From Alphaproteobacteria bacterium (lineage in GTDB: Bacteria > Pseudomonadota > Alphaproteobacteria > UBA2966), in the NCBI GenBank assembly GCA_964291395.2, contig OZ219856.1, positions 2,572,439-2,636,438 on the forward strand: a stretch of 64,000 nt of DNA. Direction: 5' to 3'. Shown in pieces: positions 21,278-49,100 of this stretch (positions are counted from its first letter, which is position 1; the number at the start of each line of letters is the position of its first letter). The notes beneath the pieces are model-generated. The model saw only the letters and a program-made list of their open reading frames with translations, made no database searches and was not told the origin of the DNA. A program made the position numbers and the translations under genes.

Positions 21278-21725
21278 GGGTCGCTTCTCGCTCGACACGA
21301 ACATCCTCGTCTATGCCGTTGATCGCGATGCGGGCGAACGCCACCGGCGATCCAGGGAGCTCATGGGGCAGGCCGCTCTGCGCGACTGCGTGCTCACGGT
21401 CCAGGCACTCGCGGAGTTCTTCCATGCGACGACACGGAAGAACCTCCTCGAGCCCGAGCACGCAAGTGCCTTCGTGCGAAGCTGGCTCGACGTGTTCAAG
21501 GTCGCTTCGGCAGACGATTCGGCTCTCCTCGACGCCATGGACGCGGTCGAGGAGCATCACCTTTCTTTGTGGGACGCCATGCTCTGGGCCGCGGCCCGGC
21601 AGACTGGCTGCTCGGCCATCCTCAGCGAAGACACGCAGGACGGCCGACGTCTGGGCGGCGTCGAGTTCATCAATCCTTTTGTCGGTGACGCCGCGACCCG
21701 CCTCACGGCGCTGCTTGAAGCATGA
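21267..21725 (+). CDS. vapC: PIN-domain toxin
   Basis: LDTNILVYA, LAEF, WDAML, LSED acidic residues intact. Confidence 0.9.
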   Translation: MTVKGRFSLDTNILVYAVDRDAGERHRRSRELMGQAALRDCVLTVQALAEFFHATTRKNLLEPEHASAFVRSWLDVFKVASADDSALLDAMDAVEEHHLSLWDAMLWAAARQTGCSAILSEDTQDGRRLGGVEFINPFVGDAATRLTALLEA

Positions 21726-22641: not shown

Positions 22642-22752
22642 TTCGGACGTTCAGGACCGGCGGCCAAGAGACCCGCGGCCCCGGTCTTGCGCGTGACGCC
22701 GGACACGGCGCACGTCGAGCGTGATACACTTGTCTTTCGGGAGAAGCGTCCG

Positions 22753-23643
22753 ATGTCGTCCACCGGTCCGGCAGTCCAACGACCAAGCAAGACCGCGGAG
22801 TTGGCCGCGGCCGTTCGTGCGCTGCACCTTCGACGCGCCCGGTCTCCCGTATTCTACGACGATCTGGCGCTGGAGATGTGTGGACCGTTCTGGCGTACCG
22901 TGGTCTCCAGCAGGCTTTTGTCCTGGTTGGTCGTCGACGGCATCTTACGGCGCCTGGCGCCCATTTCGCCGGCTGTCTATACCCGCGCCCGGTTCGGCGA
23001 GGATTGTCTGGAAGCAGCCATTGGCCGGGGCGTCGAGCAGTACGTGATCGTAGGGGCCGGCTATGAAACCTTCGCGATGCGCCGCCAAGACCTCATGGCG
23101 CGGCTGACGGTTTACGAACTGGATCAGCCGGCAACGCAGGAATCGAAGCGGCGGCGCATGCGGAAGGCGGGAATCCCGATGCCGGAAGGACTACGCTACG
23201 TCGCTGCCGACCTGAATGCCGAGACTCTGTATGACGCGTTGGGGCGGGCCGGCTTCGATGCCTCGCGGCAGACGCTTTTTTCCTGGTTCGGTGTCACCTA
23301 CTATCTCGGCAAGGATGCCATACGGGAGACCCTGGAAAGCATCGCCGGCAAGATGGCGCCCGGCTCGTCCGTGATGTTCGACTATCTCGCGGATCCGGCA
23401 TGGACGCCCGTCGCGTGGCGCGGCCTGCAGGAACGGTGCGCCGATTTCGTGGCACGGCGCGGCGAACCTTGGGTATCGAGCTTCGATCCGGCTGAGATGC
23501 CCGACTTTCTTACCGGCATCGGGTATTCGGAAATCAACAATCTCGAACCGGACCGGATCGGCAGCGAGTATTTCTCCGCCGATCCGGATCTCGTCTATCC
23601 TCCCGTCATCGGCTTTTGCCATGCGGCCACGTCGACGGGATGA
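22753..23643 (+). CDS. SAM-dependent methyltransferase, LCM/YktD-like family
   Basis: SKTAELAAAVRA, QYVIVGAGYET, VYELDQPATQ, WFGVTYYL. Confidence 0.88.
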   Translation: MSSTGPAVQRPSKTAELAAAVRALHLRRARSPVFYDDLALEMCGPFWRTVVSSRLLSWLVVDGILRRLAPISPAVYTRARFGEDCLEAAIGRGVEQYVIVGAGYETFAMRRQDLMARLTVYELDQPATQESKRRRMRKAGIPMPEGLRYVAADLNAETLYDALGRAGFDASRQTLFSWFGVTYYLGKDAIRETLESIAGKMAPGSSVMFDYLADPAWTPVAWRGLQERCADFVARRGEPWVSSFDPAEMPDFLTGIGYSEINNLEPDRIGSEYFSADPDLVYPPVIGFCHAATSTG

Positions 23644-23977
23644 AATTGCGCCCCGAATCCGACCGGCCCTCACGTTTGGCGCGACGCGTAGAGTTGGAGT
23701 CGTAGTTCTCTCGGTCGCCGGCGCGTTCCGCGTCGCCTTCGCCGCACAGAGCGGAACACGCCCTGACTCGGCCTCGACCGGGTCGTTTCGATATCGGCGG
23801 AAACGGGTCTTATGAGTCTGGCCCGACCGTCCCGTGCCGATCTTCAACATATAATGCGAGAACTTGCCGTCGCCGCCCTATGCCGTCAAACTCCGGGTAG
23901 GAATACCGCCTCGTCGAATCGTCCACGATGACGACGTCCGGCGCATGTGGTGGTCGTTCAAAAGGAGACAGACCAAA

Positions 23978-25378
23978 GTGGCGATTAATCGACACATCCA
24001 TACCGGTTTTGGTTTTCGGTCTTTGGGGATCAGTGCCCTTACTGGTCTTTTGGCCGTTTCGTTCTTGGCGTTTTTTCCGAGTGAGGCGCAGGCGGCCCTG
24101 GACGGTGAAGCCCAGTTCGTTCTGAACAGCTTTTCGTTCCTGATCTGGGGGGCGCTGGTGATGTGGATGTGCGCCGGGTTCACCATGCTCGAATCGGGCT
24201 CGGTGCGCACCAAGAACGCATCGGTGATCTGCCTCAAGAACATTGGCCTCTATTCCATAGCCGGTCTGATGTTCTACCTGGTCGGCTACAACATCATGTA
24301 TGTCGGGGTCCCGGAAGGCGGCTGGTTCGGCACGCTGACTCTGTTCTACGGCACCACGGGCGACGAGGTGACGCTGCTCGGCGGCGGCGACGACGCGGCC
24401 AAGGCGGGCGCGGCGGTGGTCAAGAACGGCTATTCGACGATGTCTGACTGGTTCTTCCAGATGGTGTTCGTCGCAACCACCGCCTCCATCGTCTCCGGAA
24501 CCCTGGCCGAGCGGGTCAAGCTCTGGTCCTTCCTCCTGTTCATCACCGTGCTGACCGCGATCATCTACCCGGTCATCGGGTCGTGGACCTGGGGCGGCGG
24601 CTGGCTCTCGGCAATGGGCTTCCAAGATTTCGCCGGCTCGACGATCGTCCACTCGACCGGCGGCTGGGCGGCGCTCGCCGGCGCCCTGGTCGTCGGCGCG
24701 CGCAAGGGCAAGTTCCGCGAGGACGGCAGCGTGAAATCCACCCCGCCCTCCAACGTGCCGGCGGTGACGCTCGGCGTGTTCATCCTCTGGCTCGGCTGGT
24801 TCGGATTCAACGGCGGTTCGCAGCTGGCGCTCAGCGGCGCCGCCGATGCCGTGGCCATCAGCAACATCCTCGCCAACACCAATCTCGCGGCGGCCGCCGG
24901 CGTGCTCGCCGCGATGGCGCTGTCGCGGCCGGTGCTCGGGCGCGTCGACCTGCTGGCGAGCCTGAACGGCGCCATCGGCGGACTGGTGGCGATCACCGCG
25001 GGACCCGACATCGTCGACCACTACTGGGCGGTGGTAATCGGCGCGGTCGGCGGCGCCATCGTGGTACTCGGCGTGAAGGTGCTCGACCGGCTCAAGGTCG
25101 ACGACGTGGTGGGCGCGGTTCCCGCGCATCTGTTCGCCGGAGTCTGGGGCACGCTCGCGGTGTGCATCGCCGCCGGGGGCAGTTTCCTCGTGCAGCTCAC
25201 CGGGATCGTCGCCATCGGCGCGTTCGTGTTCGCCTCCTCCTGGATGGTATGGTGGGCGATCAACATGACACTCGGCGCCCGCATCACGCCGGTGACCGAG
25301 GACCTGGGCCAAGATGTGGCGGAGCTGGGCATCGAGGCCTATCCCGAGTTCGTCGTCGTCCCCGACTCCGACGACTGA
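23978..25378 (+). CDS. amtB: Ammonium transporter
   Basis: FQMVFVATTASIVSG, DFAGSTIVH, WLGWFGFNGGS, DDVVGAVPAH; GTG start after AAGGAG; no adjacent glnK. Confidence 0.95.
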   Translation: MAINRHIHTGFGFRSLGISALTGLLAVSFLAFFPSEAQAALDGEAQFVLNSFSFLIWGALVMWMCAGFTMLESGSVRTKNASVICLKNIGLYSIAGLMFYLVGYNIMYVGVPEGGWFGTLTLFYGTTGDEVTLLGGGDDAAKAGAAVVKNGYSTMSDWFFQMVFVATTASIVSGTLAERVKLWSFLLFITVLTAIIYPVIGSWTWGGGWLSAMGFQDFAGSTIVHSTGGWAALAGALVVGARKGKFREDGSVKSTPPSNVPAVTLGVFILWLGWFGFNGGSQLALSGAADAVAISNILANTNLAAAAGVLAAMALSRPVLGRVDLLASLNGAIGGLVAITAGPDIVDHYWAVVIGAVGGAIVVLGVKVLDRLKVDDVVGAVPAHLFAGVWGTLAVCIAAGGSFLVQLTGIVAIGAFVFASSWMVWWAINMTLGARITPVTEDLGQDVAELGIEAYPEFVVVPDSDD

Positions 25379-26682
25379 GAGGCGGACAATGCGTGAGGGT
25401 GAGTGGCGCCGTCCGGCGTGCCTTCGAAGATGAAGTCATTCAGAAAGATGCGCTGACCGAACAGGTTACGCTCGACCTCGGTCAATCCAGCTTCCTTGCA
25501 GATGTCGTCCCATTCGTCCCGGATGGCGCCGATCTGCCGATCTATGATGTCCCTCGCCGCTTTCGCGCTGAGCTGGAAATTGGGCGCGGCCTCCAGGCAG
25601 GTCGCAAGCGTGCTCGTCCGATTGTCTCCGACGATCAACATCGCCTGGCTGGCCACATTGCCGGAACGGCTTTGCGGGCAGATGTCATAGGCAGGCGTCA
25701 GGGTCAGGCGTTCGCCGTCCCAGAAGCCCGCATGGTTGCGGGCGTGGTCGTCGGTATTGCCGCACAGGACGTTGAACACGAGCCGTCCGTAAAGCTCGTG
25801 CAACGTCGCCTTCGGCGAGGTGAAGCGGTGCCGAATGATTTCCGCGAGGACTTCATAGCTGGCGTAACGCGCCATCATTTCATCGAGACCGAACAGCGTC
25901 AGCGCCGAGACCATCGCCTTGCGCGTCCAGCCGTCTTTCGTCTTCACGCGGTCGAAACGCTCGACCAGCAGCACGTTCTTGCCGGCGACATGCGTAATAC
26001 GCACGGGAGCGACGTCGAGCCCCGCCTTGGCAGCAAGGCGCATGGCGACATATTCCGCCTTCACCACGTTATAGGTGTCGGTCGAAGACGAGAACTTGGC
26101 GATCATCTTCGTGTCGCCTTCCTGGATCGTCGCCTTCGGGCGCGCGCCGCCGAGCGACGTACCGTGCAACAGCGCTTGATCGAGATCGGGCGTCAGCGGC
26201 ACGCCATTCTCGACTTTCTCGGCGGCGCTCAGCAGCTCTTCGAGCGTCGCGGCTTGGACGGCGCGCGACACGTACTCGGAAGGGGAGCGCTGGAAGTCCA
26301 GGGCGCCGATTCGGTCGGAGCCGGACTCCGAGCAGATAGGTCAGCTCGTCGAGCGCAGCGGTGTCGACATGCATTGCCCTTGCGCCCGAAGGTCCGGTTC
26401 AGGATGACGCGACGGCCCCACGCATCCGGCGCGGCGTCGCGCAGACATCCGGCCATGCTCAGCCCGGCATTCGGGCGCAATCGCTCCGCTGCGCAGCGGC
26501 AGTTCCGGCTCGTAGATCGGAATGCGGTCATTCCGATCCAGATAGCTCTGGCCGTAGTTGAAGATCAGCCGCTCGCCGTCACGCGCGATTCGACCGGCGA
26601 CGACCGGTGCCGTCGCGCCGGGCAGCCATACCCAGACATAGGCTTCCTCCGGCGCTTTCGTGTCGGGGCGATCAGAAGTCAT
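25339..26682 (-). pseudogene. hipA: HipA-family kinase toxin with three +1 frameshifts
   Basis: Consecutive frames give FNYGQSYL, LRDAAPDAWGRRV, LDELTYLL, DRIGALDF, SLGGARPKA, GNTDDHARN, LTPAYD. Confidence 0.88.
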
Positions 26683-27010
26683 CCTTCACCTTCTTCGTTC
26701 CGGTGCGGACGGATTGCGGCAGCAGGGTGAGCTTGTCGCGTTCCATCGACAGATGGCGCGTCAGCGTTGTCGGTTCGGCTTGGAACAAGCGCAGCCCGAC
26801 AATGGCGGCCACCTCGAAGGCCGCGCCGATGGAGGAGCCCATTTCGCCTTTTTCGATGCGGTGCACGAGGCCGCGCGAAGTCCCGGCGCGTTCGGCGACA
26901 TCGGCGACCGTGATGCCGCGTTCGATGCGCGCGTTACGGATCATGAGCCCAAGAAGCTCTGCGGCTTCGCGGGCATAGCGGGAATAGCTTCTGTTTGCGG
27001 GCTTCGCCAT
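26672..27010 (-). CDS. hipB: XRE-family HTH antitoxin (HipB-like)
   Basis: LGLMIRNARIERGITVADVAERAGTSRGLVHRIEKG; overlaps hipA start. Confidence 0.85.
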   Translation of the reverse strand: MAKPANRSYSRYAREAAELLGLMIRNARIERGITVADVAERAGTSRGLVHRIEKGEMGSSIGAAFEVAAIVGLRLFQAEPTTLTRHLSMERDKLTLLPQSVRTGTKKVKDDF

Positions 27011-27361: not shown

Positions 27362-27635
27362 GTGCTGATCCCGGTCCGGTCCACGCAATTCAGGCGCGAC
27401 GTGAGGAGAGCGCAAAAGGCGGGGCAAGGACCTGACCTAGTTGCGGCCTCCGCTGACGGCACCGATCCAACAGGAACCTTTGCCCGTGGGCTATCGCGAT
27501 CATCCGTTGCGAGGGATCTGGAAAAGTTACCGGGAGTTTCATATCGAGCCCGAGTGGCTGTTGATTTACCGCGTCAAGGGAGACGAGTTGCATTTGGTCC
27601 GCACCGGGTCCCACGCCGACCTTTTCGATGAGTAG
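27362..27635 (+). pseudogene. yafQ: YafQ toxin with frameshift and internal stop
   Basis: STQFRRDVRRAQK[fs]RGKDLT*L...YRDHPLRGIWKSYREFHIEPEWLLIY...VRTGSHADLF. Confidence 0.88.
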
Positions 27636-27980
27636 CACTGACAACGAGGCGTTGTCCCTGCGGAGGATAGCTGCCCTGGTCCCGTTTCAGCCCGCGCTCT
27701 GTCCGTCCTGGTGGCGCCGCGCGTTCGGGGGAAAGGGACGCGAGGGGACCGGGGATCGAGGAAGAGAAAACTGACGGATCATGACGGTCATTCGACGTAT
27801 CCCAAGGCGCCTGCGATTACCGTCCGTGACGCAATGCATGATACCCACAACACCAACTTGACCCCTCCATCAAAACCGGGGACCATCCGGAGAGAATGCA
27901 TGGGTCATCGGTTCCGGGGATGACCGGTCTCGAGCCGGCATCCCGGAGCCGTCCGTGGCTTGATGAAACGCTTGTTCAGG

Positions 27981-28422
27981 GTGTGACGAAATCGCTGTCC
28001 TCGAAATCTCGCTGACCAACGATCTTCAGGAGATCGCCGTCGCGGCGGAGCAAATCGAAGAATTCTGCGCCGCGCGCGACCTGTCGCCGGCCATCGCCTA
28101 CGCCGTCAACCTGTCGATCGATGAACTGCTGACCAACACGATCAACTACGGGTATGACGACGGCGTCCGGCACCGGATCGACATCGCGGTGCACATGGAC
28201 GGGAGCGTCATCGTCGTCGAGATCACCGACGACGCCAAGCCGTTCGATCCGTCCGGAGTCGCGCAACCGGATACCGATATCCCGCTCGAGGACCGGCCGG
28301 TCGGCGGGCTGGGCATTCACTTGGTCCGCGAAATGATGGACGAGTTCCGATATCGCCGCAGCGGGGAACACAACATCGTGACCTTTACCAAAAACACGAA
28401 GGATGCCGGGACGGCGGTATAG
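27981..28422 (+). CDS. RsbW-like anti-sigma factor Ser/Thr kinase (no in-frame start; possibly frameshifted at 5' end)
   Basis: LEISLTNDLQEI, LSIDELLTNTINYGY, ITDDAKPFDP, RPVGGLGIHLV; frame open from 27967 but no ATG/GTG/TTG until 28189. Confidence 0.8.
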
Positions 28423-28447
28423 GGGCGCCGGGAGTGGCGCCGTGCGG

Positions 28448-30394
28448 TCAATCGGGCTTGCCGTTGTAGCGTAGAACCAGACATGTGATGTCGTCCGACT
28501 GCGCCGCCTCGCCGACGAAATCGGCGACCGCGAGGGTCACGTTTTCGATCACGGCGTCGACGGAGATCTGGTTGCCGGTCGACAGCACGGTTTCCAGGCG
28601 CGCCTCCTCGAACATATCGCCGCCGACGTCCATCGCCTCGGAAATGCCGTCGGTGTAAAGGAACAGCGTGTCCCCTATGGTAAGCGTCAGGCTGTTTTCC
28701 TCGTATGGCAGGTCCGGCATGACGCCGATCGCGACGCCGCCGGTCAACGGCAACGTCTCGACCTCACCGTCCCGCCGAACGAGGAACGGCGCATTGTGAC
28801 CGGCATTGGCGTAGGAGAAACGGCCCGTCCCGGGATCCAGAATACCGTAGAACAACGTGACGAACAGATCGTGGGGGTTCTGGGCGCAGATCCCGTCATT
28901 GACAAGGCGCAGGCAGGCGCCGGCCCGGTCCGTGTCGTTCGCGGCGGTGCGCGTGACCGTCCTCGCGATCGCCATGAAGAACGCCGCCGAGACGCCCTTG
29001 CCGGAGACGTCGGCGATCACCACGCCGAGACGGCCGTCCGGCAGGGTGAAGAAATCGTAGAAGTCGCCGCCCATCTCGCGCGCCGGGGTCATCAGGGCGT
29101 GCCCCGAATAGGCGTCGTGGCTCGGCATGGTCTTGGGCAGGATCGCGCCCTGCAGGGAATGCGCGATGGCCAGCTCGTCCTCCATGCGCCGTTTCGCCTG
29201 ATCGAGTTCCGCGTTCTTCTCCTCGAGGTCCCGCGTGCGCGCCGCCACCAGGGCTTCCAGATGATCCTCGCGCGCCTGGACCTCGCGGGCCATCGCCTGA
29301 AACACGCGGATCAGCCGTCCCAGCTCGTCCCGCCGGCGCCCGATGCGGTCGAGCGATTCCGGGACGAAACTGCGCCGGTCCATCTCCTCGGCCGCCTGGG
29401 TCAGCGCCATGACCGGCCGCGTGATGCGGCGGGCCGACAATATTGCGGTCACCGAGCCGACCAGGAAGGCGGCGGCCGCGACCATGAAGCCGAATCTGAG
29501 ATAATCGGCAAGCAGTCGGTCCAACTGGTCGCGGGGCATGTGGATGACGGCAACGCCAGTGGCTACGCCGCCGCGGTCCAGGACGGGCGCGGCGACGTGG
29601 AGCGCATCGTCGCTCAGTACCGATTGCGCGCCCGCGTTCAGCGCCCGGCCGGCGAGCGACCGGTCGACCGCCAGGAACGCCGGCCCCGGCACACCGGCAT
29701 GCGCGTCGGTCGCGACCGCAGCCGTCACCTCGAGAGAATCGTCAACCACCCAGATCGCCCGGACTCCCGGTTGCCCGGCCAGCGAACCGAGCGCTGCCAC
29801 CAGACCGAAGGTCTCGCGCAGGCCCGTGGTCTTGTCGGCCAGGCTGCCGACCAGCACCAATCCGCCGCTGCGGGCGCGGACGCCGACGTATTGCAGGGGC
29901 CGCTCCAACCCGTCCCGCGGCACCGGCCGAAGGGCGACGGAGAAGCGGCGTCCCGACAGGAGGGTCTGCAAGACCGGTCCGTCGATCTCCTCGAGCGCCA
30001 TGCCGACGCCGGTCTGGCTGAGCCCATTGATGGCGCGCGCCGACGGCGCTCCGGTTTCGTCCAGTACCCAGATGTCGTCGATGACACTGTCCGACGTTAT
30101 CTCCGCGAGGTGGATGGCAAGCCCCTTCGCGTCGCTGCCGACGACCTCGGCCAGGTGAGCCAGGGCGATCGCCTGCGCCTCGTTCTCGCGCGCGACGAAA
30201 CGGTCGATCTCGTCGGATATCATGCCGGTCCGGTTGGCTTCGCCCGCGATCAGGCCGGCGACGAGCCGTGCCTGATTCTCCGCCTGGTCGACCAGCGCAT
30301 CGCGCGCCAGCAAGCCCATCGCCGTCGCCACGCCGAGAATGGCGACACCGACCGACGCCGAGACGATCAGGATGAGATGCCGGGAGAGGCTCAT
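28448..30394 (-). CDS. Membrane sensor PP2C (SpoIIE/RsbU-type) phosphatase with extracytoplasmic domain and HAMP
   Basis: Two TM helices, HAMP (ITRPVMAL...RRDELGRL), GGDFYD, IADVSGKG, NAGH, LYTDG, DDIT. Confidence 0.92.
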   Translation of the reverse strand: MSLSRHLILIVSASVGVAILGVATAMGLLARDALVDQAENQARLVAGLIAGEANRTGMISDEIDRFVARENEAQAIALAHLAEVVGSDAKGLAIHLAEITSDSVIDDIWVLDETGAPSARAINGLSQTGVGMALEEIDGPVLQTLLSGRRFSVALRPVPRDGLERPLQYVGVRARSGGLVLVGSLADKTTGLRETFGLVAALGSLAGQPGVRAIWVVDDSLEVTAAVATDAHAGVPGPAFLAVDRSLAGRALNAGAQSVLSDDALHVAAPVLDRGGVATGVAVIHMPRDQLDRLLADYLRFGFMVAAAAFLVGSVTAILSARRITRPVMALTQAAEEMDRRSFVPESLDRIGRRRDELGRLIRVFQAMAREVQAREDHLEALVAARTRDLEEKNAELDQAKRRMEDELAIAHSLQGAILPKTMPSHDAYSGHALMTPAREMGGDFYDFFTLPDGRLGVVIADVSGKGVSAAFFMAIARTVTRTAANDTDRAGACLRLVNDGICAQNPHDLFVTLFYGILDPGTGRFSYANAGHNAPFLVRRDGEVETLPLTGGVAIGVMPDLPYEENSLTLTIGDTLFLYTDGISEAMDVGGDMFEEARLETVLSTGNQISVDAVIENVTLAVADFVGEAAQSDDITCLVLRYNGKPD

Positions 30395-31023
30395 TGTTGC
30401 CTCGCGGCCAGGCGGGCGCGCAGGGCCCGCATCGCCAGGGCCACGACCGCCGCGAAGGCGAGAAACCAGACCATGGCATAGAGATAGACCCAGAACGTAA
30501 ACTCGGCCCTGCCTATCGCGCCGATCACGGTCTCGGCCCGGTGGACGAGTTCGGGCACGCCGATGACCGAGGCCGTGGCGGAGGCCATGACGATGATCAG
30601 GAAATAGCTCGTCCAGGAGGGAAGGAACAACAGCGCCTCGGCGGTCTCGCCGCGCCTCAGATGCCGCAGCGCGGCAAGCGCGTTGTCGGACACGTAACCG
30701 GCGACCGCGATCGCCAGCGCGAGCGACGCCTTGAACCAGGCCGGCACGGTGACGACGACGCCCAGAACCTCGAAGGTTCCGGGGACGGCATAGGCGAGAT
30801 AGAACAACATGACGAAGGTCGGCGCCCCACGCGCGAACGCCGTGAGCGCGCTGCCGGTCTGCTTGACGCCCGGCGCGGTGCCGCCCCGCAGCGCCGCGAG
30901 CAGCAGGCCGACCGCCGTCCCGATCGCCATCGCGGCCAGCGAGACGATCATGTTCCAGCCGAAACCCGCCGCCAGATAGGGCGTCCAGGTGATCAGCACG
31001 TCGGCGACGTCCACCATCATCAT
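30391..31023 (-). CDS. Polar amino acid ABC-type permease lacking the EAA loop
   Basis: RGAPTFVMLFY and ASVIGVPELV match HisM-type permeases; no EAA-x3-G motif; ATGA overlaps at both ends. Confidence 0.8.
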   Translation of the reverse strand: MMMVDVADVLITWTPYLAAGFGWNMIVSLAAMAIGTAVGLLLAALRGGTAPGVKQTGSALTAFARGAPTFVMLFYLAYAVPGTFEVLGVVVTVPAWFKASLALAIAVAGYVSDNALAALRHLRRGETAEALLFLPSWTSYFLIIVMASATASVIGVPELVHRAETVIGAIGRAEFTFWVYLYAMVWFLAFAAVVALAMRALRARLAARQQ

Positions 31024-32630
31024 GACGCGTGCTCCCGGTGCTCCCAGCGGCGGAAGATCCGGACCGTGACGATGACCAGCACGAAATAGCAGATCAGCAG
31101 CAGGTTCATCATCACGTCATCGTTGCCTTTCTCGGCCACGATGGCGGTGCTGGCGTGCACCAGTTCGGGCAATGCCAGGGTGCTGGCCATGCCGGTCGCC
31201 TTGACGATGTTGACCGAATTGCCCATCACCGCGGCGTGGCACAGCCCCAGCGCGCGGCGGATCTCGGCGATCCTGAAACCCAATCGGCTGCCCTCGCCGG
31301 CCGCCACGTCCGCCGCCAGAGCGAACGCGACGGCATTGCTGGCCGCGGCATAGAACGACAAGACCACGGATGCGACCGTGAACGCGTCGAGCGAAAAGCC
31401 GAGCGCCAGGATGACGCCGCCAAGGCCAAAGAAGACGACATAGAGCTGCAGGAGCGGCGGCGTCATGCGCAAGGTCGCGCAAAGAGCCTGCAGGACGACC
31501 GCGACGACAGGGGTCCGTCGATGCATCAACCAGCCGAACAGAACACCCAGGCCTATGCCGCCCGCCACCGTCACGACGGACAGCGCGACCGTCAAGGCCA
31601 GGCCGAACAGAAAGATGTCGCGGTCCAACGGATCGTAGAGCAGGCTGACGTCGAGACCGGTCGCTTCCATCAACGTCAGGGAGACGCCCGAAATGCCGCC
31701 GAGCTCGCCGCCGGCGACCAGCGCGACCTCGCGGCATGCGAGCGGCCATTTTCCGGTGCCGTCGCGCCGGCAGACGAGATCGCCGGCCTCGTCGGTCTCC
31801 TGCCAGGTCAACCGGGCCCGCCGCAGATAGGGCGAGGGAGGCAACTCCCACCGCTTCTCCAGTTCCTGCAGAAAGCCTCCGCGATGCCATCCGGCGAGCG
31901 TATCGCCGAGCAGCCGGTCGAGGCTGCTGCCCGCCGCCTCCTTGGCGATGGCGACCGCCCATGGGAACACGAAGCGCGTCGGCAGCGAGACGCCATAGCC
32001 CTCCCACTCGCCGCTCCTCAGCTCGTTCAGCAGGTTGACCTCGTCGTACAGCCAGCCGATGCAGTGCTCGTTGCGCAGGGCGAGCGCGGCCTCGCGCGTG
32101 GAGTTGAGAGAGATTGTCTCGACCAGCAGCCGTTCGCGGGCGAGGCGATTCCACAGCGAGCCCTGGACGCTGCACAGGGTGCGGCCCCGCAGGTCCGCCC
32201 AATCCGAGATCCCCGCATCCGGACGCAACAGGACGTTGGCGCCGTCGCCGTAGTACTGTGGTTCCACCATGTGGACGAGTTCCCGGCGGCTGCGGGTGTC
32301 GCCCAGTGTGGCGACGACGATGTCGATCTCGCCGCGCTGCAGTTTCTGCAGACGATTGGCGCTGGTCACCGGCGTCAACCGCAGCGAGACGCCGATGACT
32401 TCGGCGAAGGCGCGGGCGACGTCGACATCGTAGCCGACGAGGTTTCCGTCGGCGTCGGGGAAGCCGAAGGGCCGGTAGTCGGCCTTGACCCCGGCGATCA
32501 GATGGCCGCGCTCTCGGATCTCCTCAAGCCGGTCGGCCACGGCCGGGCCGGTGCCGCAAAGCCAGACGGCGACGGCGAGAATGACGAGGCCCGCGCGGTG
32601 GCGGGGACGGTCCCGGTCGGTCGCACTCAC
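31020..32630 (-). CDS. Fusion of family-3 amino acid binding protein and ABC-type permease
   Basis: RLEEIRERGHLIAGVKADYRPFG, TSANR, GEIDIVVAT; C-terminal RMTPPLLQL, NIVKATGMAS; GTG start overlapping the upstream stop. Confidence 0.85.
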   Translation of the reverse strand: MSATDRDRPRHRAGLVILAVAVWLCGTGPAVADRLEEIRERGHLIAGVKADYRPFGFPDADGNLVGYDVDVARAFAEVIGVSLRLTPVTSANRLQKLQRGEIDIVVATLGDTRSRRELVHMVEPQYYGDGANVLLRPDAGISDWADLRGRTLCSVQGSLWNRLARERLLVETISLNSTREAALALRNEHCIGWLYDEVNLLNELRSGEWEGYGVSLPTRFVFPWAVAIAKEAAGSSLDRLLGDTLAGWHRGGFLQELEKRWELPPSPYLRRARLTWQETDEAGDLVCRRDGTGKWPLACREVALVAGGELGGISGVSLTLMEATGLDVSLLYDPLDRDIFLFGLALTVALSVVTVAGGIGLGVLFGWLMHRRTPVVAVVLQALCATLRMTPPLLQLYVVFFGLGGVILALGFSLDAFTVASVVLSFYAAASNAVAFALAADVAAGEGSRLGFRIAEIRRALGLCHAAVMGNSVNIVKATGMASTLALPELVHASTAIVAEKGNDDVMMNLLLICYFVLVIVTVRIFRRWEHREHAS

Positions 32631-33478
32631 GGAGCGCCCGGGAGCAGAGGTTTGCTCACTATGAGAAATCCGTAGCCGCCGGCCGCGGGCACAAACCGGC
32701 ACGCCAAGTCGTCGAGCCGGCCGAGCAGCGGCCTGCCGACGACGACACTCTCGGGCAGCAGACTCTCGGGCTCGATGCTCTCGATTCGAAACCCCGCAGC
32801 CGAGAGGTCGTGCCGCGCCTCCGATGGAGAGAAGAGATGGTAGAACAGCCGGATCTCATCCGCGCCGCCGCCCCGCGTGTAGAGAACGTCTCCGGGCTCC
32901 AGTTCGCCGGCCCGGACCAGGGGGGCCACCGAGCGCTGTTCCGCTCGAAACCGCCGCCTCGCGTTCGGCAGGCCGAGGATCAAAACGCCATCCGGCTTCA
33001 GCATCTCGCGAACCGTGCCGAGCAGGCGCAGGCGCTGCTTCCGTCCGGCGACGTGCCCCAGAACTCCGAAGGTCAAAAGCGCCAGATCGAACGCCCGCTC
33101 GTGCGTTTCGACCAAAGCCGCCAAGTCGCCGTTGCGGATGACGAGCCGTCCGTCGCCGACGAAGGCGCGCAAGCGCTCCGCCATCACCCGGCACGCCGCC
33201 GGGCAGACATCGTACGCCACGCCGCTCGCCCGGGTCAGTTCCATCAGCGGCAAGGTGTAGCGTCCGGTGCCGGCCCCGAAGTCGAGAAACCGGCCTCCTT
33301 CCCGCAGGCAGCGCAAGGATTTCCTCAACGTGCGCCTGTTCGGGCGCGGGTAGCGCCGGTCGTAGAGGCCCGAGGAGATGTAGGTATCGTAACCGCCGCG
33401 CACGTCCGGCACGCCCACCCGGGGCACGGGCTCGTCCTTGCCCATGGCGTCGGTAACGCCACTGGGTACGCTCATCAT
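32627..33478 (-). CDS. Class I SAM-dependent methyltransferase
   Basis: FLDFGAGTGRY, FDLAL, LKPDGVLIL; ATG after AAAGGAGG. Confidence 0.88.
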   Translation of the reverse strand: MMSVPSGVTDAMGKDEPVPRVGVPDVRGGYDTYISSGLYDRRYPRPNRRTLRKSLRCLREGGRFLDFGAGTGRYTLPLMELTRASGVAYDVCPAACRVMAERLRAFVGDGRLVIRNGDLAALVETHERAFDLALLTFGVLGHVAGRKQRLRLLGTVREMLKPDGVLILGLPNARRRFRAEQRSVAPLVRAGELEPGDVLYTRGGGADEIRLFYHLFSPSEARHDLSAAGFRIESIEPESLLPESVVVGRPLLGRLDDLACRFVPAAGGYGFLIVSKPLLPGAP

Positions 33479-33611
33479 TCCTCCTTTGGCCTCGGTCCGT
33501 CGGGGCTTGTCACCCAAGCGACTGTACCATTAGGCTACCGGCGTCGGTCCGACCCTACTATCGACTGTCCCAGGGAGCAATTCCTGAAATCACGTCGATG
33601 CCCTTGGGCGC

Positions 33612-34607
33612 ATGGCGAAGCAGGGCGGTCGCGAAAGGGCCGGGGACGAGAACCTGCGGACGCGCAACACCTCGATTGCCCATGGCGAAAAGGGGCGGAG
33701 ATTGAGATCACGAGAGAACGGTTGGTCGCGAGCGCGGCGACTGGCGGCCCTGCCGATGTTGGCGGCGCTGGCGACGGTCCACGCCGGGGTGCATGCGGCG
33801 GACGGCGTCCTCGACCAGATCGCGGCCGACGGCGTGATGCGCGCGGGCACGAGAGCCAACGCGGCGCCCTTCGCCCAGAAGACGGCCTCGGGAGAGTTCG
33901 AGGGATTCTCCGTCGACCTGCTCGGGGAGATCCGTGCGGCGGCAGAGAGGACGGTCGGCCGGACCGTCAGCCTCGAGCTTCACGAGGTGACCCCCGCCGA
34001 TCGGCTGCAGCGCGTCGCCGCCGGTGAGATCGACATCGTCTGCGGCATCACCACGCCAACCTGGAACCGGGAAGACCTGGTGGACTTTTCCCTGCCGTTC
34101 TTCCGCGACGGTACCCGTGTCATGGTGTATCGCGGGCATGGAGACCGCGCCCTGGATCTCGGCCGGCTGAAGGTGGGCGTGGTGGAGGGCACCACCACCG
34201 TGACCGTCGTGAAGGATCGGCTGCCCGGCGCCAGCCTCCACGTCTACGCCAACATGGGCGACGCGATGCGCGGGCTGGAGACGGGCGAGGTCGAGGGCGT
34301 GGCCAACGTCGGCGTCGTGCTGCTCGGGCTGGCCGAACGCAGCAAGCCGCGGCGCAGCGTCCTGCTGCTGCCGAGGACGCGCGCGTTGGCGACTGAGGCC
34401 CTGGCCTGCGTTCTACCGCAGAACGACAGCCGCTGGCGCGACCTGGTCAACAGGACCCTCGTCGGAATGTTCGCCGACGTGCAGGACTTCAACGGCCGCT
34501 ACGAGGAAATCTACGATCACTGGTTTGGCCGCGACGGCGCGCTGTTCTATCCGCTCGACCGCGCGACGCGCGACTACCTCGGCAACGTCTCGATCTGGGC
34601 CAGATGA
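33612..34607 (+). CDS. Family-3 amino acid binding protein (GltI-like); true start may be nearer 33756
   Basis: GFSVDL, VTPADRL, IDIVCGITTPTWNREDLVDFS, GTTT, IYDHWFG. Confidence 0.88.
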   Translation: MAKQGGRERAGDENLRTRNTSIAHGEKGRRLRSRENGWSRARRLAALPMLAALATVHAGVHAADGVLDQIAADGVMRAGTRANAAPFAQKTASGEFEGFSVDLLGEIRAAAERTVGRTVSLELHEVTPADRLQRVAAGEIDIVCGITTPTWNREDLVDFSLPFFRDGTRVMVYRGHGDRALDLGRLKVGVVEGTTTVTVVKDRLPGASLHVYANMGDAMRGLETGEVEGVANVGVVLLGLAERSKPRRSVLLLPRTRALATEALACVLPQNDSRWRDLVNRTLVGMFADVQDFNGRYEEIYDHWFGRDGALFYPLDRATRDYLGNVSIWAR

Positions 34608-34861
34608 CCGCCCCGGTGTTCGCCGGAGACGTTCGATGCTCCGCCCCCGAGTCGGCGGCCGCTCGTTCGCAACTCGGTGACGGCGGCGTCCGTGCCCAGA
34701 ACCACCACGAAAAATCTCCGCCCGCGACCGCGCGGACGCACGCGGATGCGAAAGCCGGCCTCAACCGATAGGATCGACTCACTGCCGCTACCCGTCGGAT
34801 CATGCGGCCGTGACAAGGGCCGGCCAGCCGATCGCCCCTTACGCCTCGGCCACAAGCGCAC

Positions 34862-36745
34862 ATGACCCTCCCTCTCCGTCGTGCCGTAAGCCTCATCACC
34901 GGCCGCGGCCCGAGGCAAGGTGATGGGGGGCCGCACCCCGAGCCGTCACGCGGACGCTTGGCCGTGGCCGTCCTTCTGGCCCTGTCGGCAGACGGCATCG
35001 AACCGCTGGCCGCACAGGATCACGGCATCGCCATGCACGGCGACCTCAAGTACGAGGCCGGCTTCGGTCATCTCGATTACGTCTATCCCGACGCGCCAAA
35101 GGGGGGCGAGCTCCGACGTGCCGCGACGGGCACCTTCGACAACCTCAACCCGTTCATCATCAAGGGTGTGCCGGCGCGTGGGAGTCACTTGCCCTTCGAA
35201 AGCCTCCTGAAAAGGACGTGGGACGAGCCGTTCTCGCTTTACGGTCTGATCGCCGAATCGATCGAGGTGCCGGATGACCGTTCTTCCGTTACCTTCGTGT
35301 TGCGACCGGAAGCGCATTTCCACGACGGCCGTTCGATCACCGCGGATGATGTCGTCTTTTCCTGGGAGATCCTGAAGGAACAAGGAAGGCCCAACCACCG
35401 GCTATATTACCGGCAGGTGCAGCGCATCGAGCGGCCTGATGCGCGCTCGGTACGGTTTGTCTTCGATTCCGAGGCGCCGGACCGCGAGCTGCCGCTGATC
35501 ATCGGATTGATGCCGATCCTGTCCAAGTCTTACTACGCGGCGGTGACGTTCGAGAAAACGACGCTCGATCCACCGCTCGGCAGCGGTCCCTATCGTGTTG
35601 AGAGCGTGGACGCGGGCCGCAGCATCGTCTATCGCCGCGATCCCGAATATTGGGGGCGCCACCTGCCCATCAACCGCGGGCAGCACAACTTCGACCGCAT
35701 TCGCTACGACTACTACCGCGACGGCAACGTGATGATGGAGGCTTTCAAGGCGGGCGAGTACGACCTTCGTCGGGAACACTCCGCGAAACGTTGGGCAACC
35801 GCGTACGACTTCCCTGCCGCCGCGGACGGCCGCGTCAAGCTCGAACGCCTGCCGCACGGTCGCCCCTCCGGCATGTTCGCCTTCGTTTTCAACACGCGGC
35901 GGGAGGTTTTCGTTGACCGCACGGTTCGCCGCGCCCTGGCGCACGCCTTCGACTTCGCCTGGGTCAACGAGACGCTGCTGCACGGCGCCTACATCCGTAC
36001 ACGCAGCATCTTCGATAACTCGGAACTCGGTTCGCGAGGTGTTCCGCGAGGTCTCGAGCGCGATCTGCTGGAACCCTTTCGGAAGCGTCTGCCTCCCGAG
36101 TTGTTCGAGGGCACCTACCGTCCGCCGGCTGTCGACGGCGGCATCCGAGCCAACCTCAAGGCGGCGCGGCGCCTGCTGGCCGAGGCAGGCTGGGTGGTGC
36201 GGAAAGGATCGCTACGGCGCGCGCAAGACGGACTGCCGATGGCATTCGAGATCCTGCTCGTGGATTCGGCGAACGAGAAAATCGCCCTCTCGTTTGCCCG
36301 GAACCTCGAGCGCCTGGGCGCACAGGTGCGGGTCCGGACGGTGGACACACCGCAATACCGGTACAGGCTGAACGCCTACGACTTCGACATGATCGTTTAC
36401 CGCTGGGGCATGTCGCTTTCACCGGGGAACGAGCAGGCGTACTATTGGGGCATCGCGGCGGCAGCGCAGGAGGGGACGCGCAACTACCCGGGGGTGCGGG
36501 ATCCGGTCGTCGATGAACTCATCGATCGCATGACCAAGGCGCGCGAACGCGATGCCTTCGTCGACATCGTCCGCGCCATGGACAGGGTGCTGTTGTGGGG
36601 GCACTACTTCGTTCCCCTCTACCATCTGAACGAAGATCGAATCGCCTATTGGGACAAGTTCGGTCGGCCTGACATCACACCCTTATATGGAATCGTGATG
36701 GAAGCGTGGTGGGAGGACTCCGACAAGGCGAAAACCGGACGGTGA
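34862..36745 (+). CDS. Family-5 solute-binding protein, YejA-like
   Basis: HGIAMHGDLKY, PDAPKGG, TFDNLNPFIIKG, PLGSGPY, SPGNEQ, DRVLLWGHY. Confidence 0.88.
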   Translation: MTLPLRRAVSLITGRGPRQGDGGPHPEPSRGRLAVAVLLALSADGIEPLAAQDHGIAMHGDLKYEAGFGHLDYVYPDAPKGGELRRAATGTFDNLNPFIIKGVPARGSHLPFESLLKRTWDEPFSLYGLIAESIEVPDDRSSVTFVLRPEAHFHDGRSITADDVVFSWEILKEQGRPNHRLYYRQVQRIERPDARSVRFVFDSEAPDRELPLIIGLMPILSKSYYAAVTFEKTTLDPPLGSGPYRVESVDAGRSIVYRRDPEYWGRHLPINRGQHNFDRIRYDYYRDGNVMMEAFKAGEYDLRREHSAKRWATAYDFPAAADGRVKLERLPHGRPSGMFAFVFNTRREVFVDRTVRRALAHAFDFAWVNETLLHGAYIRTRSIFDNSELGSRGVPRGLERDLLEPFRKRLPPELFEGTYRPPAVDGGIRANLKAARRLLAEAGWVVRKGSLRRAQDGLPMAFEILLVDSANEKIALSFARNLERLGAQVRVRTVDTPQYRYRLNAYDFDMIVYRWGMSLSPGNEQAYYWGIAAAAQEGTRNYPGVRDPVVDELIDRMTKARERDAFVDIVRAMDRVLLWGHYFVPLYHLNEDRIAYWDKFGRPDITPLYGIVMEAWWEDSDKAKTGR

Positions 36746-37507: not shown

Positions 37508-37668
37508 CGCGAGATCCAACCGGTCATTATAACCGGACATATCCCATCATGCGTCGCTGGAGACTGGCAACCCGTTCGCGGCCTTGCGCCACTCGGCGTT
37601 TGAAAGAGAACCGGTTTCGCGGTGCGGCGGCATCGCCGTGCGCCGGGCGCCAAACTAGCCAGCGTCCC

Positions 37669-38568
37669 GTGGCGCATGTAGGATCGGCGGCGGCGCCTAC
37701 GGGACGGCCCGCCGACCCGTATGCCGAGGGGGGACGCGCGATTCCGAGTTCTGACGACCGAGTCACGATCGACGAGGGAGGCGACCCCGCGTTCGAGCGG
37801 GGCGGCACGGCTCTGGCGGTCGAAGACGTGCACAAGAGCTTCGGCCCGGTCGAGGTCCTGAAGGGCGTCTCCCTCGGCGCGAACGATCACGACGTGGTCT
37901 CGATACTCGGCTCGAGCGGCTCGGGCAAGAGCACCCTGCTGCGCTGCATCAATCTGCTGGAAACTCCCGATTCGGGCCGCGTGTACGTGAAGGGGGAACT
38001 CATCCGGATGCGCGAGAGCCGCCGGGGCGGCCCGGTTCCCGAGAATCCGAAGCAAGTGGAGCGGATACGCGGGAAGCTCGCGATGGTGTTCCAACAGTAC
38101 AATCTATGGTCGCACATGACGGTCATTCAGAACGTCATCGAGGCACCGGTGCACGTGCTCAAGCTTCCCCGCGCCGAAGCCATCGAGCGCGGCGAGGAGG
38201 AGCTGCGACGAGTGGATATGTACGATCGCCGCGACTACTATCCGGCCCATCTTTCGGGCGGACAGCAGCAGCGCGCGGCGATTGCCCGCGCTCTCGCGAT
38301 GCAGCCCGACGTGATGCTGTTCGACGAGCCCACGTCGGCGCTCGATCCGGAGCTGGTCGGCGAGGTGCTGCGAGTGATGCGCGGCTTGGCCGAGGAAGGC
38401 CGCACCATGCTGGTGGTCACCCACGAGATGGGTTTCGCCCGGGAGGTGTCGGACCGGGTGATGTTTCTCCATGAAGGCAGAGTGGAGGAGAACGGGAAAC
38501 CGGACGAAGTGTTCCAGAATCCGAAGTCGGAGCGCTTCCGGCAATTCCTCGCCGGAACGTTGAGATGA
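37669..38568 (+). CDS. Polar amino acid ABC transporter ATPase (HisP/AotP-like); start uncertain
   Basis: [33 protein letters not shown]. Confidence 0.92.
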
Positions 38569-38647
38569 CGGCGTGGGCCCCGGTGCGGACAAAGGTCCCA
38601 CCCAACCGTCGCCGACCCACCCCGTCCAAACGAAAGGAGGAGCCAAC

Positions 38648-39424
38648 ATGAAACGTTTCACCACCGCGTTGGCGGCGGCGGCACTTGCCGTCGCGGCCGG
38701 CACCGCGTCCGTGTCCGCCGGAGAAGAGCTCCGGATCGGAGTCGAAGGCGCCTATCCACCGTTCTCCTGGAAAGAGGCGGACGGGTCCCTGAAGGGATTC
38801 GACATCGATATCACGTTCGCTCTCTGCGAGAAGATGGGTCGCGAATGCACGCTCGTCGAGCAGGACTGGGACGGCATGATCCCCGCCCTCCTCGCGAGGA
38901 AGTACGACGCCATCGTCGCGTCGATGTCCATCACCGAGGAGCGAAAGAAGCGCGTCGACTTCACCGGCAAGTACTACAACACGCCGGCGCGTTTCGTGGC
39001 CACGGAAGGATCGGACCTCGACGTTTCACCGGCCGGGCTGGCCGGAAAGGCGGTGGGCGTGCAGCGTGGGACGACTCACCAGTGCTTCATGGAGAAGCTC
39101 TTTCCGGAGGCCGACCTGAGGCTCTATCAGACGCAGGAGGAGGTCTTCCTCGATCTGGCCGCGGGGAGGCTCGATGCCCAGTTCTCGGATGCACTCCAGG
39201 CCGACGAAGGCTTTCTCAAGTTGGACGCGGGCAAGGGCTTCGCCTTCGTCGGCGGTCCTCAGTACGACCTGGAATGCCACGGCGAGGGCGCCGGCGTCGC
39301 CTTGCGCAAAGGCGAGGACGAGCTTCGTCAGGCGTTCAACGCGGCGATCCTGGCGATCCGCGAAGACGGCACCTACAAGTCGATCAACGACAAGTATTTC
39401 GACTTCGACGTGTACGGCGACTAG
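38648..39424 (+). CDS. Basic amino acid ABC binding protein (HisJ/ArgT-like)
   Basis: IGVEGAYPPFS, DWDGMIPAL, SMSITEERKK. Confidence 0.92.
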   Translation: MKRFTTALAAAALAVAAGTASVSAGEELRIGVEGAYPPFSWKEADGSLKGFDIDITFALCEKMGRECTLVEQDWDGMIPALLARKYDAIVASMSITEERKKRVDFTGKYYNTPARFVATEGSDLDVSPAGLAGKAVGVQRGTTHQCFMEKLFPEADLRLYQTQEEVFLDLAAGRLDAQFSDALQADEGFLKLDAGKGFAFVGGPQYDLECHGEGAGVALRKGEDELRQAFNAAILAIREDGTYKSINDKYFDFDVYGD

Positions 39425-39558
39425 CCCGCCGACGGCCGGGTGAAACCTCCGGGTGAAGAGTCCCCGGTGAAGCGGGGCTGCCCGAGTTCGCGCGACGGGC
39501 CCCGCCGGTCGCTCCCCGCGCCTTCGATCGCCGCCCGGCGGGCGGGCTCCGGGCCCAG

Positions 39559-40248
39559 ATGGACACGGTAGTCGCCTATCTGCCGGCCATTCTGAGGGGC
39601 ACCAGCGTCACCGTCGCGGTGGCCCTGTGCTCGGCGGTGCTGGCCGTGCTTCTGGGGCTGCTCGGCGCGTGGGGGAAGATCGCGCCGTCGCGGACCGCGA
39701 ACGCCGTCACCGGCGCCTACACCACCCTCGTCCGCGGGGTCCCCGATCTCGTGCTGATGCTGCTCCTGTTCTACGGAGGGCAGCAACTCCTGAACGACAT
39801 CGGCGCCGCCACCGGGTGGTGGGGATATATCGAAATCAGCCACTTCACCGCCGGCGTATTCACCATCGGGTTCATCTACGGCGCCTACATGACCGAGACG
39901 TTCCGCGGCGCCTATCTCGCGATCCCGAGAGGCCAGATCGAGGCCGGGACCGCCTGCGGCATGAGCGGCAGCCTGGTGTTCCGCCGTATCGTCTGGCCGC
40001 AGCTCGTGCGCTACGCCCTCCCCGGATTCGGCAACAACTGGCTGGTGCTCCTCAAGACCACCGCCCTCGTATCGGTGCTGGGCTTGCACGAACTGGTCTG
40101 GGAGTCGTTCACCGCCGGCCGGTCCACGCGCCAGCTCTTCACCTTCTTCTTCGTAACCCTGGCCATCTACCTGGTGTTGACCGCGATCTCGGACACGGGG
40201 CTCAGGTGGCTCGAGCGCAAGTACAGCGCCGGCGTGAGAAGGGCCTGA
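39559..40248 (+). CDS. Polar amino acid ABC permease (HisQ-like)
   Basis: YTTLVRGVPDLV, ETFRGA...GQIEAG..CGMS, LKTTALVS. Confidence 0.92.
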   Translation: MDTVVAYLPAILRGTSVTVAVALCSAVLAVLLGLLGAWGKIAPSRTANAVTGAYTTLVRGVPDLVLMLLLFYGGQQLLNDIGAATGWWGYIEISHFTAGVFTIGFIYGAYMTETFRGAYLAIPRGQIEAGTACGMSGSLVFRRIVWPQLVRYALPGFGNNWLVLLKTTALVSVLGLHELVWESFTAGRSTRQLFTFFFVTLAIYLVLTAISDTGLRWLERKYSAGVRRA

Positions 40249-40251
40249 ACG

Positions 40252-49032: not shown

Positions 49033-49100
49033 TCTGGTGGGGTGGGCGTTTTCTGCGCCTTGTTTGTGGTTCTGGGTGCCGCGACGCGGGGGTCTGAGGG

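Follow-up and report, generated by a model that had tools for sequence, protein, structure and literature searches.

Introduction

The nearest known counterparts of the membrane proteins considered here are the type I polar-amino-acid importers of the ATP-binding cassette (ABC) family, such as Art(QN)2 (4YMS), HisQMP2 and GlnPQ. We analysed a gene cluster from an Alphaproteobacteria bacterium (lineage UBA2966, assembly GCA_964291395.2) within a 64,000-nucleotide stretch of contig OZ219856.1 (positions 2,572,439 to 2,636,438), hereafter called the window. The cluster encodes a substrate-binding protein (SBP) fused to a transmembrane domain (TMD), which we call FUS, a second membrane domain, TMD2, a membrane-bound PP2C phosphatase, a methyltransferase, a free SBP and an RsbW-like kinase. 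It shares with the importers named above the TMD fold, SBPs of family 3, an SBP ahead of the TMD, and a TMD heterodimer encoded by two genes; in GlnPQ the substrate-binding domains are likewise fused. Its nearest relatives, at the seven loci L090-L096, are complete importers of this kind. Unlike them, the cluster has no gene for a nucleotide-binding domain (NBD), the EAA helix is deleted in TMD2 and degenerate in FUS, and the cytoplasmic partners are the PP2C and a GHKL kinase.

For these cytoplasmic partners, the closest parallels are the RsbU/RsbV/RsbW and SpoIIE/SpoIIAA/SpoIIAB pathways, which also have a SpoIIE-type PP2C, a HATPase_c_2 kinase and a STAS protein with a conserved serine motif. 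In contrast to RsbU/V/W, the input here is a membrane element of ABC type, the loci scanned showed no neighbouring sigma factor gene, and the kinase or the phosphatase is fused to the transporter TMD in 25 loci. The SiaABC pathway of Pseudomonas aeruginosa is outlined in 10.1101/674879 / PMC7647112. SiaABCD consists of the HAMP-PP2C SiaA, the kinase SiaB, SiaC and the diguanylate cyclase SiaD, and has in common with the cluster a membrane HAMP-PP2C and a kinase gene. SiaA is also the best NCBIfam match of our PP2C (NF038263, 112.4 bits against an equivalog cut-off of 700), a match limited to residues 306-643, that is, to HAMP and PP2C; the periplasmic part differs, and no GGDEF domain was found in 10 loci scanned. 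To our knowledge, SiaA is not linked to ABC TMDs.

Transporters or their homologues report a solute to a signalling protein in BceAB-BceS, PstSCAB-PhoU-PhoR, UhpC, and the yeast proteins Ssy1 and Snf3. BceAB and Pst still have ATPases and still carry out transport or ATP hydrolysis, and UhpC, Ssy1 and Snf3 are homologues of secondary carriers, whereas the cluster combines an ABC importer core lacking NBDs and coupling helices with Ser/Thr phosphatase and kinase partners. Periplasmic binding proteins or Venus-flytrap domains also serve as the input of membrane signalling proteins in LuxP-LuxQ, TorT-TorS and BvgS, which have no ABC TMDs and use histidine kinases as outputs. The component families, as well as the idea of transporter-derived sensors, are known. 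A full-text literature search, with subscription journals outside its scope, returned no account of an ABC importer core that lacks NBDs and is coupled or fused to a PP2C or to an RsbW-type kinase, and public annotation names the proteins no more precisely than 'transporter substrate-binding domain-containing protein' and 'SpoIIE family protein phosphatase'. We consider it fairly probable that the cluster encodes an ATPase-less receptor that arose from an SBP-fused polar-amino-acid ABC importer and feeds a partner-switching module.

Results

Organization of the gene cluster

The genes of the cluster and of the nearest complete importer in the window are the following.

33612-34607, plus strand: free periplasmic SBP_bac_3 protein, divergent from the operon
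32627-33517, minus strand: open reading frame (ORF) of the methyltransferase; likely start ATG 33478, preceded by AAGGAGG
31020-32630, minus strand: FUS, the SBP_bac_3-TMD fusion; start GTG 32630, 536 aa
30391-31023, minus strand: TMD2, a divergent ABC membrane domain of polar-amino-acid type; 210 aa
28448-30394, minus strand: HAMP-SpoIIE PP2C; 648 aa
27967-28422, plus strand: open frame of an RsbW-like HATPase_c_2 kinase, convergent with the PP2C gene
37549-41010: canonical importer with HisP, SBP, HisQ and HisM; a complete system

An earlier reading made from the DNA letters and their translations (hereafter the sequence-only reading) had described a four-gene chain held together by three 4-nt overlaps, flanked by a divergent SBP gene and a convergent RsbW-like kinase gene, and all of this is borne out. 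The methyltransferase, FUS, TMD2 and HAMP-PP2C genes follow one another with 4-nt overlaps, read from the sequence as GTGA at 32630-32627, ATGA at 31023-31020 and ATGA at 30394-30391. The G+C content of the window is 62-68%, and all four minus-strand genes have a strong third-position G+C bias. A longer FUS frame of 560 aa, starting from 32702, was rejected because it overlaps the methyltransferase gene and the 536-aa form matches the homologues.

FUS is built of an N-terminal anchor or signal helix, an SBP_bac_3 domain (80.5 bits, Pfam), a Cys-containing linker and an ABC-type TMD with a five-helix core. Both membrane domains are divergent: FUS residues 364-456 match NCBIfam TIGR01726 with 40.4 bits and TMD2 with 36.7 bits, each under the cut-off of 42.2, and Pfam BPD_transp_1 detects neither of them, TMD2 being without any Pfam match. 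The AlphaFold2 models have mean predicted local distance difference test (pLDDT) values of 76.9 for TMD2 and 78.6 for FUS. Transmembrane helices TM3 and TM4 are 9 residues apart in TMD2, and in FUS a 9-residue loop joins TM3 (416-444) to TM4 (454-485). The top Foldseek match of the TMD2 model is 4yms_D/C, the membrane subunit of Art(QN)2 (E 3e-5, TM 0.6), so TMD2 has a type I importer fold. Four cysteines in the periplasmic part of FUS (C153, C190, C287 and C299 in the 536-aa numbering) are invariant; two of them sit in the conserved linker between SBP and TMD, and the pattern suggests disulfides and a rigid tether.

The free SBP is likewise an SBP_bac_3 protein (75.9 bits, Pfam). Its best NCBIfam match is TIGR04262 GrrP (130.7 bits, under the cut-off of 190), and its nearest solved relatives, AncQR, DEBP (2ia4) and GlnH, are amino-acid binders.

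Conservation of the cluster and natural fusions

A pattern scan for FUS over one genome per species returned 554 stretches that encode a relative, of which the best 77 loci were fetched with 10-kb flanks. Components were counted by tblastn with the window proteins in these flanks, some of which end at contig ends, and neighbours were annotated from tblastn maps and Pfam searches of selected ORFs rather than complete gene calls. FUS has at least 177 homologues at 44-96% identity. The 77 loci span alpha- and betaproteobacteria: Rhodospirillales (Defluviicoccus-like metagenome-assembled genomes, Geminicoccus, Azospirillum rugosum, Zavarzinia), Hyphomicrobiales (Kaistia, Bosea, Mesorhizobium, Aquamicrobium, Tianweitania, Oryzicola) and Burkholderiales (Undibacterium). 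Cultured carriers include Kaistia soli DSM 19436, Kaistia hirudinis DSM 25966, Zavarzinia aquatilis, Aquamicrobium species, Undibacterium umbellatum and Azospirillum rugosum. The components occur as follows.

TMD2 beside FUS: 77/77 loci
PP2C: 75/77 loci
Free SBP: 69/77 loci, divergent upstream in 59
Methyltransferase: 58/77 loci
STAS protein within 10 kb: 52/77 loci
Relative of the RsbW-like kinase: 48/77 loci
PP2C fused to TMD2: 13/77 loci
PP2C directly downstream of TMD2: 49/77 loci, in 12 of them behind a TMD2-kinase fusion
PP2C one gene away: 6/77 loci
PP2C upstream on the same strand: 7/77 loci (Undibacterium group)
PP2C absent from the flank: 2/77 loci (L076 and L079)

The FUS and TMD2 genes share a 4-nt overlap in 62 of the 77 loci. 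The neighbourhood search that the sequence-only reading had called for thus confirms the linkage to the PP2C, which is kept in 75 of the 77.

TMD2 is joined to the signalling enzymes in two kinds of natural fusion. In 13 loci, all within the 18-row clade that contains the window, TMD2 and PP2C form a single ORF of 854-855 aa in which the last TMD2 helix and the first PP2C membrane helix are about 10 residues apart. In 12 other loci, from Kaistia, Zavarzinia, Bosea and Mesorhizobium, TMD2 and the RsbW-like kinase, with about 50 linker residues between them, make up a single ORF of 382-384 aa, and the PP2C gene comes next. Independent public gene calls hold 22 proteins of 853-855 aa with a SpoIIE domain, most of them also with HAMP, and three of 383-384 aa with PF13581 HATPase_c_2. 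The topology of the fusions fits because the C-terminus of an importer TMD is cytoplasmic. Of all the observations, they argue most strongly that the membrane pair would act in one complex with the partner-switching enzymes. A complex prediction for FUS 305-536, TMD2 and PP2C 1-400, run without controls, scored 0.00 and weighs neither way.

The window genome carries a paralogous FUS-TMD2 locus, L088 (G000:C1:2140001-2160000, positions 8437-13464), in which genes for a GPP34-like protein, a free SBP, FUS and TMD2 are followed by a convergent RsbW-like kinase gene and a STAS gene. Its free SBP, FUS and TMD2 are 71%, 89% and 85% identical to the window copies. DNA nearly identical to 27400-35000 of the window was found in many runs labelled as sponge metagenomes, from several studies (X1-X19), and contigs of RNA libraries from sponge and coral samples (X2, X18, X19) cover parts of all five genes. 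We rejected these contigs as evidence for an operon transcript: one bridges the divergent promoter, and carry-over of DNA is possible.

No cognate ATPase

The sequence-only reading had found no ATPase in the unit, and this stands: no ABC_tran domain was found between 27000 and 37500 of the window, the nearest being HisP of the separate complete system at 37549-41010. Within about 10 kb of the 77 loci, the window HisP matched 43 ABC-ATPase stretches, which we call flank ATPases. None of the 43 had a polar-amino-acid ATPase as its best match in the window genome, as against seven out of seven control ATPases taken from beside canonical relatives, and none of the 16 flank ATPases typed with NCBIfam was of the HisP/GlnQ/ArtP type. 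Representatives examined with Pfam and NCBIfam were ZnuC (with Fur and ZnuB), MalK/UgpC, PotA-like, ModC and DppF/OppD ATPases, besides LptB, LivF, heme/corrinoid, sugar-type and MsbA-like ones. Three of the closest candidates were rejected as partners: the ATPase next to the free SBP in L019-L037 is part of a Fur-ZnuC-ZnuB unit, the one next to the SBP in L060 is PotA/Fbp-like with a double permease, and the one after the PP2C in L069 is a sugar-type double ATPase with BPD_transp_2. Homologous operons are therefore without a cognate ATPase, as the sequence-only reading implied.

The window genome has three canonical polar-amino-acid systems, each with its ATPase beside its own TMD pair, and two FUS-TMD2 pairs, neither with an ATPase; no orphan polar-amino-acid ATPase was seen in this genome.

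Loss of the EAA coupling helix

We aligned 78 TMD2 and 76 FUS membrane domains with HisQ and HisM of the window and measured the loop from the Y of the AxY motif to the K/H at the LLK position. The spacing is 57 residues in HisQ and HisM, 37 in TMD2 and 47 in the window FUS. It is 37 in all 78 TMD2 sequences, and the 20-residue gap covers the EAA helix exactly. In FUS it ranges from 40 to 51 in all 76 sequences (47 in 51 of them), which is 6-17 residues short. The string EAAxxxG occurs in none of the 78 TMD2 sequences. It occurs in 6 of the 76 FUS sequences, all from the Kaistia group and 7 residues upstream of the canonical position; these strings, displaced relative to the canonical TMDs, were not counted as a retained motif. 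The sequence-only reading had noted that both permeases lack EAA-x3-G, that the loop has 23 aa in TMD2 compared with 43 aa in HisM, and that the loop of the fusion is shortened and degenerate. The alignment agrees on each point, 37 against 57 being the same 20-residue difference, and extends the deletion in TMD2 to the whole family.

A TMD2 profile run over 401 genomes of the phylum matched nine at E <= 1e-25: the window genome, the deletion-bearing locus L089, and the seven ATPase-linked loci L090-L096. The latter are complete importers with an SBP-TMD fusion (or a split SBP and TMD), a second TMD and an adjacent ATPase. They are weaker matches, with membrane domains 25-33% identical and ATPases 46-50% identical to HisP. 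Full loops with EAA are present in all the ATPase-linked relatives aligned (5/5 TMD2-like and 4/4 FUS-like sequences). Because these ATPase-bearing sister operons keep the loop, the loss of EAA tracks the loss of the ATPase. In a maximum-likelihood tree, obtained by a quick search and rooted at the midpoint, in which HisQ and HisM have very long branches, the 80 TMD2 sequences that bear the deletion group in a single clade (SH-aLRT 99) apart from the ATPase-linked relatives. Loss of the ATPase therefore coincides with loss of the coupling helices in one derived lineage.

The signalling enzymes

The PP2C protein has two membrane helices, TM1 and TM2, which enclose a periplasmic domain of about 270 aa; TM2 is followed by HAMP, a coiled coil and a SpoIIE-type PP2C domain. 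Pfam gives 175 bits for SpoIIE (positions 1-191 of 192) and 25.1 bits for HAMP, and the nearest solved relatives in a profile search of the PDB are 6k4e_A (1e-24), RssB and Rv1364c. D444, D447, D462, D582, D634 and D635, which we take to be metal ligands, are invariant in 28 sequences. The periplasmic domain is weakly dCache-like: the Undibacterium orthologue reaches 40 bits with dCache_1, and the other orthologues match it weakly.

The window genome holds a single SpoIIE domain, that of this PP2C, together with four RsbW-like kinases and nine STAS matches. The kinase of the cluster scores 92.5 bits with PF13581 in the genome scan, and its NCBIfam RsbW/SpoIIAB matches are below threshold. Two further genes of the window belong here.

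48667-49032, plus strand: STAS protein (Pfam STAS, 78.1 bits)
49101-49523, plus strand: second RsbW-like kinase, adjoining the STAS gene (Pfam HATPase_c_2, 89.3 bits)

This STAS protein is 70% identical to that of L011 and 74% identical to that of the paralogous locus. It is an orthologue of the STAS proteins whose genes adjoin the cluster in relatives, but it lies 20 kb away here, and it is a candidate substrate of the PP2C and the kinase. The motif YISSAG is invariant in six STAS sequences of the cluster family. The STAS-kinase pair at 48667-49523 has a copy of identical score at G000:C3:1052645-1053453, which is either a duplication or assembly redundancy, the genome being rated 9% contaminated.

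The sequence-only reading started the convergent kinase at GTG 27981. The kinase itself stands, but this codon is out of frame and is met immediately by a TGA. There is no ATG, GTG or TTG between the in-frame TGA at 27964-27966 and the conserved N-terminus, and a canonical start is likewise absent in the closest relatives, L011-L015. ATC 27991 aligns with the first residue of more distant kinase orthologues and has AGGG 7-9 nt upstream; by this alignment it is the likely start. The in-frame TGA ahead of the kinase frame shares bases with a conserved ATG/GTG that belongs to a short +1 ORF; where this ORF ends varies among the relatives. Programmed +1 frameshifting or read-through was considered and is disfavoured relative to the ATC start because the short upstream ORF ends differently in the window, L011 and L012. 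A weak, non-canonical start may keep the kinase level low. Upstream of the kinase, L013 and L015 have a STAS gene, and the window has toxin-antitoxin genes and no STAS gene.

Sigma-factor control, which the sequence-only reading had brought in from known PP2C/RsbV/RsbW cascades, is not supported as an output because no sigma factor gene was seen near the loci: no sigma factor domain was found among 71 neighbour ORFs of 10 loci or among the scanned ORFs of the window, with no genome-wide search made.

Neighbouring genes

An ammonium transporter (Amt) gene lies near the cluster in 20 of the 77 loci, and in 18 of these a STAS gene stands directly behind it with a gap of about 20-110 nt (L011, L016-L018, L025, L026, L032, L038, L040-L043, L047, L049, L063, L071, L073 and L075). 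This pairing hints that STAS proteins may regulate Amt. An NCS2-type (Xan_ur) permease is present near the cluster in 20/77 and a GPP34-like protein in 12/77; with Amt, these are the most frequent neighbours of the STAS genes. The GPP34-like gene is preceded by another STAS gene in about eight loci. In the Kaistia group (L053:14976-16853 and its relatives), a convergent STAS gene and a gene for an NCS2/Xan_ur permease lie between the PP2C and methyltransferase genes; this permease has 570-625 aa, and its last 180 residues or so match no Pfam family.

In the window, an ammonium transporter gene occupies 23864-25378, with a leucine carboxyl methyltransferase (LCM) family gene just upstream of it at 22687-23643. 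Toxin-antitoxin genes are found at 21032-21725 (Phd/PIN), 25339-26271 (HipA) with 26672-27010 (helix-turn-helix, HipB-like), and 27441-27635 (a broken YafQ-type toxin).

The methyltransferase of the cluster is a class I S-adenosylmethionine-dependent enzyme (Pfam Methyltransf_12/23/25/11), and its best sequence match in the PDB is CcbJ only, with E 4e-4. In 40 of the 77 loci its gene is directly upstream of FUS; in 15 it lies downstream on the same strand, in three it stands elsewhere, and in 19 the flank lacks it.

Discussion

The conserved cluster, the missing ATPase, the family-wide loss of the coupling helix, the fusions and the intact catalytic motifs are best accommodated by the following scheme. 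An ancestral SBP-fused amino-acid importer would have lost its NBDs and coupling helices, and with them presumably its transport activity, and become a receptor. An amino-acid-like ligand would be bound in the periplasm by the SBP domain tethered in FUS, by the free SBP or by both, and the loaded SBP would dock on the heterodimer of the FUS TMD and TMD2 in the manner of a type I importer. A conformational change might then spread within the membrane and, by way of the cytoplasmic TMD2 C-terminus, reach the HAMP-PP2C; in some lineages it might also reach the RsbW-like kinase. Phosphatase and kinase would set the phosphorylation state of a STAS protein at the conserved serine of YISSAG, and the STAS protein would act on a target, for which a neighbouring transporter is one possibility. 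The interpretation that the sequence-only reading had put forward, a membrane complex that senses an amino-acid-like ligand and regulates the phosphatase, is supported, since every outcome that computation could have turned against it fell in its favour.

A bolder version of this scheme, which we put forward only tentatively, holds that the NBDs were replaced, at the cytoplasmic face of the importer core, by the PP2C and the RsbW-like GHKL kinase, and that a periplasmic amino acid, bound by the tethered and free SBPs, would set STAS phosphorylation and so control transporters post-translationally, for example the adjacent ammonium channel, instead of a sigma factor.

Several observations weigh against a receptor. 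The membrane motifs of the two TMDs are very strongly conserved even between lineages with only about 40% identity, and they could be a retained translocation pathway. The methyltransferase, FUS and TMD2 occur without the PP2C in L076, L079 and L089; in L076 (12229-15240) and L079 (12262-15207), the gene after TMD2 encodes a protein of about 1000 aa in which a Peripla_BP_6 (Leu/Ile/Val-type) binding domain is joined to an MscS channel domain. The paralogous locus L088 also lacks the PP2C, as well as the methyltransferase, and the single PP2C of the window genome may serve both membrane pairs. The role of the membrane pair is therefore not strictly PP2C-dependent. Conversely, the PP2C, with its own Cache-like periplasmic domain, could sense alone. 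A vestigial docking site is possible in the FUS proteins of the Kaistia group, to judge from their displaced EAA strings, and so is an ATPase acting in trans. The window kinase has neither a canonical start codon nor a STAS gene beside it, and the methyltransferase has no explanation within the receptor model. Finally, we infer each step of the mechanism from sequences and models.

Among the alternatives, the flow could be reversed, FUS and TMD2 being an ATP-independent, SBP-gated facilitator or channel that the PP2C-kinase-STAS module regulates. The conserved motifs of both TMDs and the persistence of the FUS-TMD2 core without the PP2C in L076, L079, L089 and L088 speak for it, and the STAS genes beside Amt in 18 loci and the Xan_ur permease in 20 loci would fit STAS proteins that act on transporters. 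However, HAMP and a periplasmic domain give the PP2C the layout of a receptor rather than that of a regulator of a neighbouring protein, and transport by a type I ABC TMD pair in the absence of NBDs is not known to us. We regard such a reversal as unlikely.

Slightly less likely still is an arrangement in which the tethered or free SBP signals by direct contact with the Cache-like PP2C domain, as happens in LuxP-LuxQ and TorT-TorS, with the TMDs acting only as anchors. It would suit the periplasmic domain of about 270 residues, with its dCache_1 score in Undibacterium, and the free SBP kept in 69/77 loci. A mere anchor, however, would need no two multi-pass TMDs so conserved, and the kinase fused to the cytoplasmic end of TMD2 in 12 loci would be left unexplained.

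We consider it quite improbable that the cluster encodes an ordinary amino-acid importer that shares an ATPase in trans and is merely co-regulated with the PP2C. Shared ATPases do exist in other ABC families, for example in MsmK-type sugar systems, and the window HisP lies 3 kb beyond the free SBP. Yet this HisP has its own SBP, HisQ and HisM, its neighbourhood is not conserved, and all three polar-amino-acid ATPases of the genome adjoin their own TMD pairs. The helix on which such an ATPase would act is deleted in 78/78 TMD2 sequences and degenerate in FUS, none of the 43 flank ATPases is of the right type, and in 25 loci TMD2 shares one ORF with either the PP2C or the kinase. Sister operons that rely on an ATPase, for their part, have it alongside and retain their EAA loops.

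The least probable alternative, which we hardly entertain, makes the methyltransferase the cytoplasmic partner, trapping the solute by methylation (group translocation) or adapting the receptor like CheR: the enzyme is translationally coupled to FUS in the window, stands directly upstream of it in 40/77 loci and stays with FUS-TMD2 where the PP2C is missing, but it is absent from the flanks of 19/77 loci that keep FUS-TMD2-PP2C and has no informative relatives.

ABC importers are defined by their ATPase, and here a conserved and widespread lineage keeps the membrane core of such an importer with neither NBDs nor coupling helices and fuses it to signalling enzymes. If the cluster is an ATPase-less receptor, it would show a path from transporter to receptor for which ATPase-bearing sister operons are still extant for comparison, and it would provide a concrete and testable ligand-binding input for Gram-negative partner-switching phosphatases, whose signals are mostly unknown. 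The cultured carriers make direct testing possible. The neighbouring genes raise the possibility that STAS proteins control transporters such as Amt. If the replacement of the NBDs and the STAS-transporter link both hold true, the family would represent a new class of transmembrane receptors together with a new output logic for partner switching.

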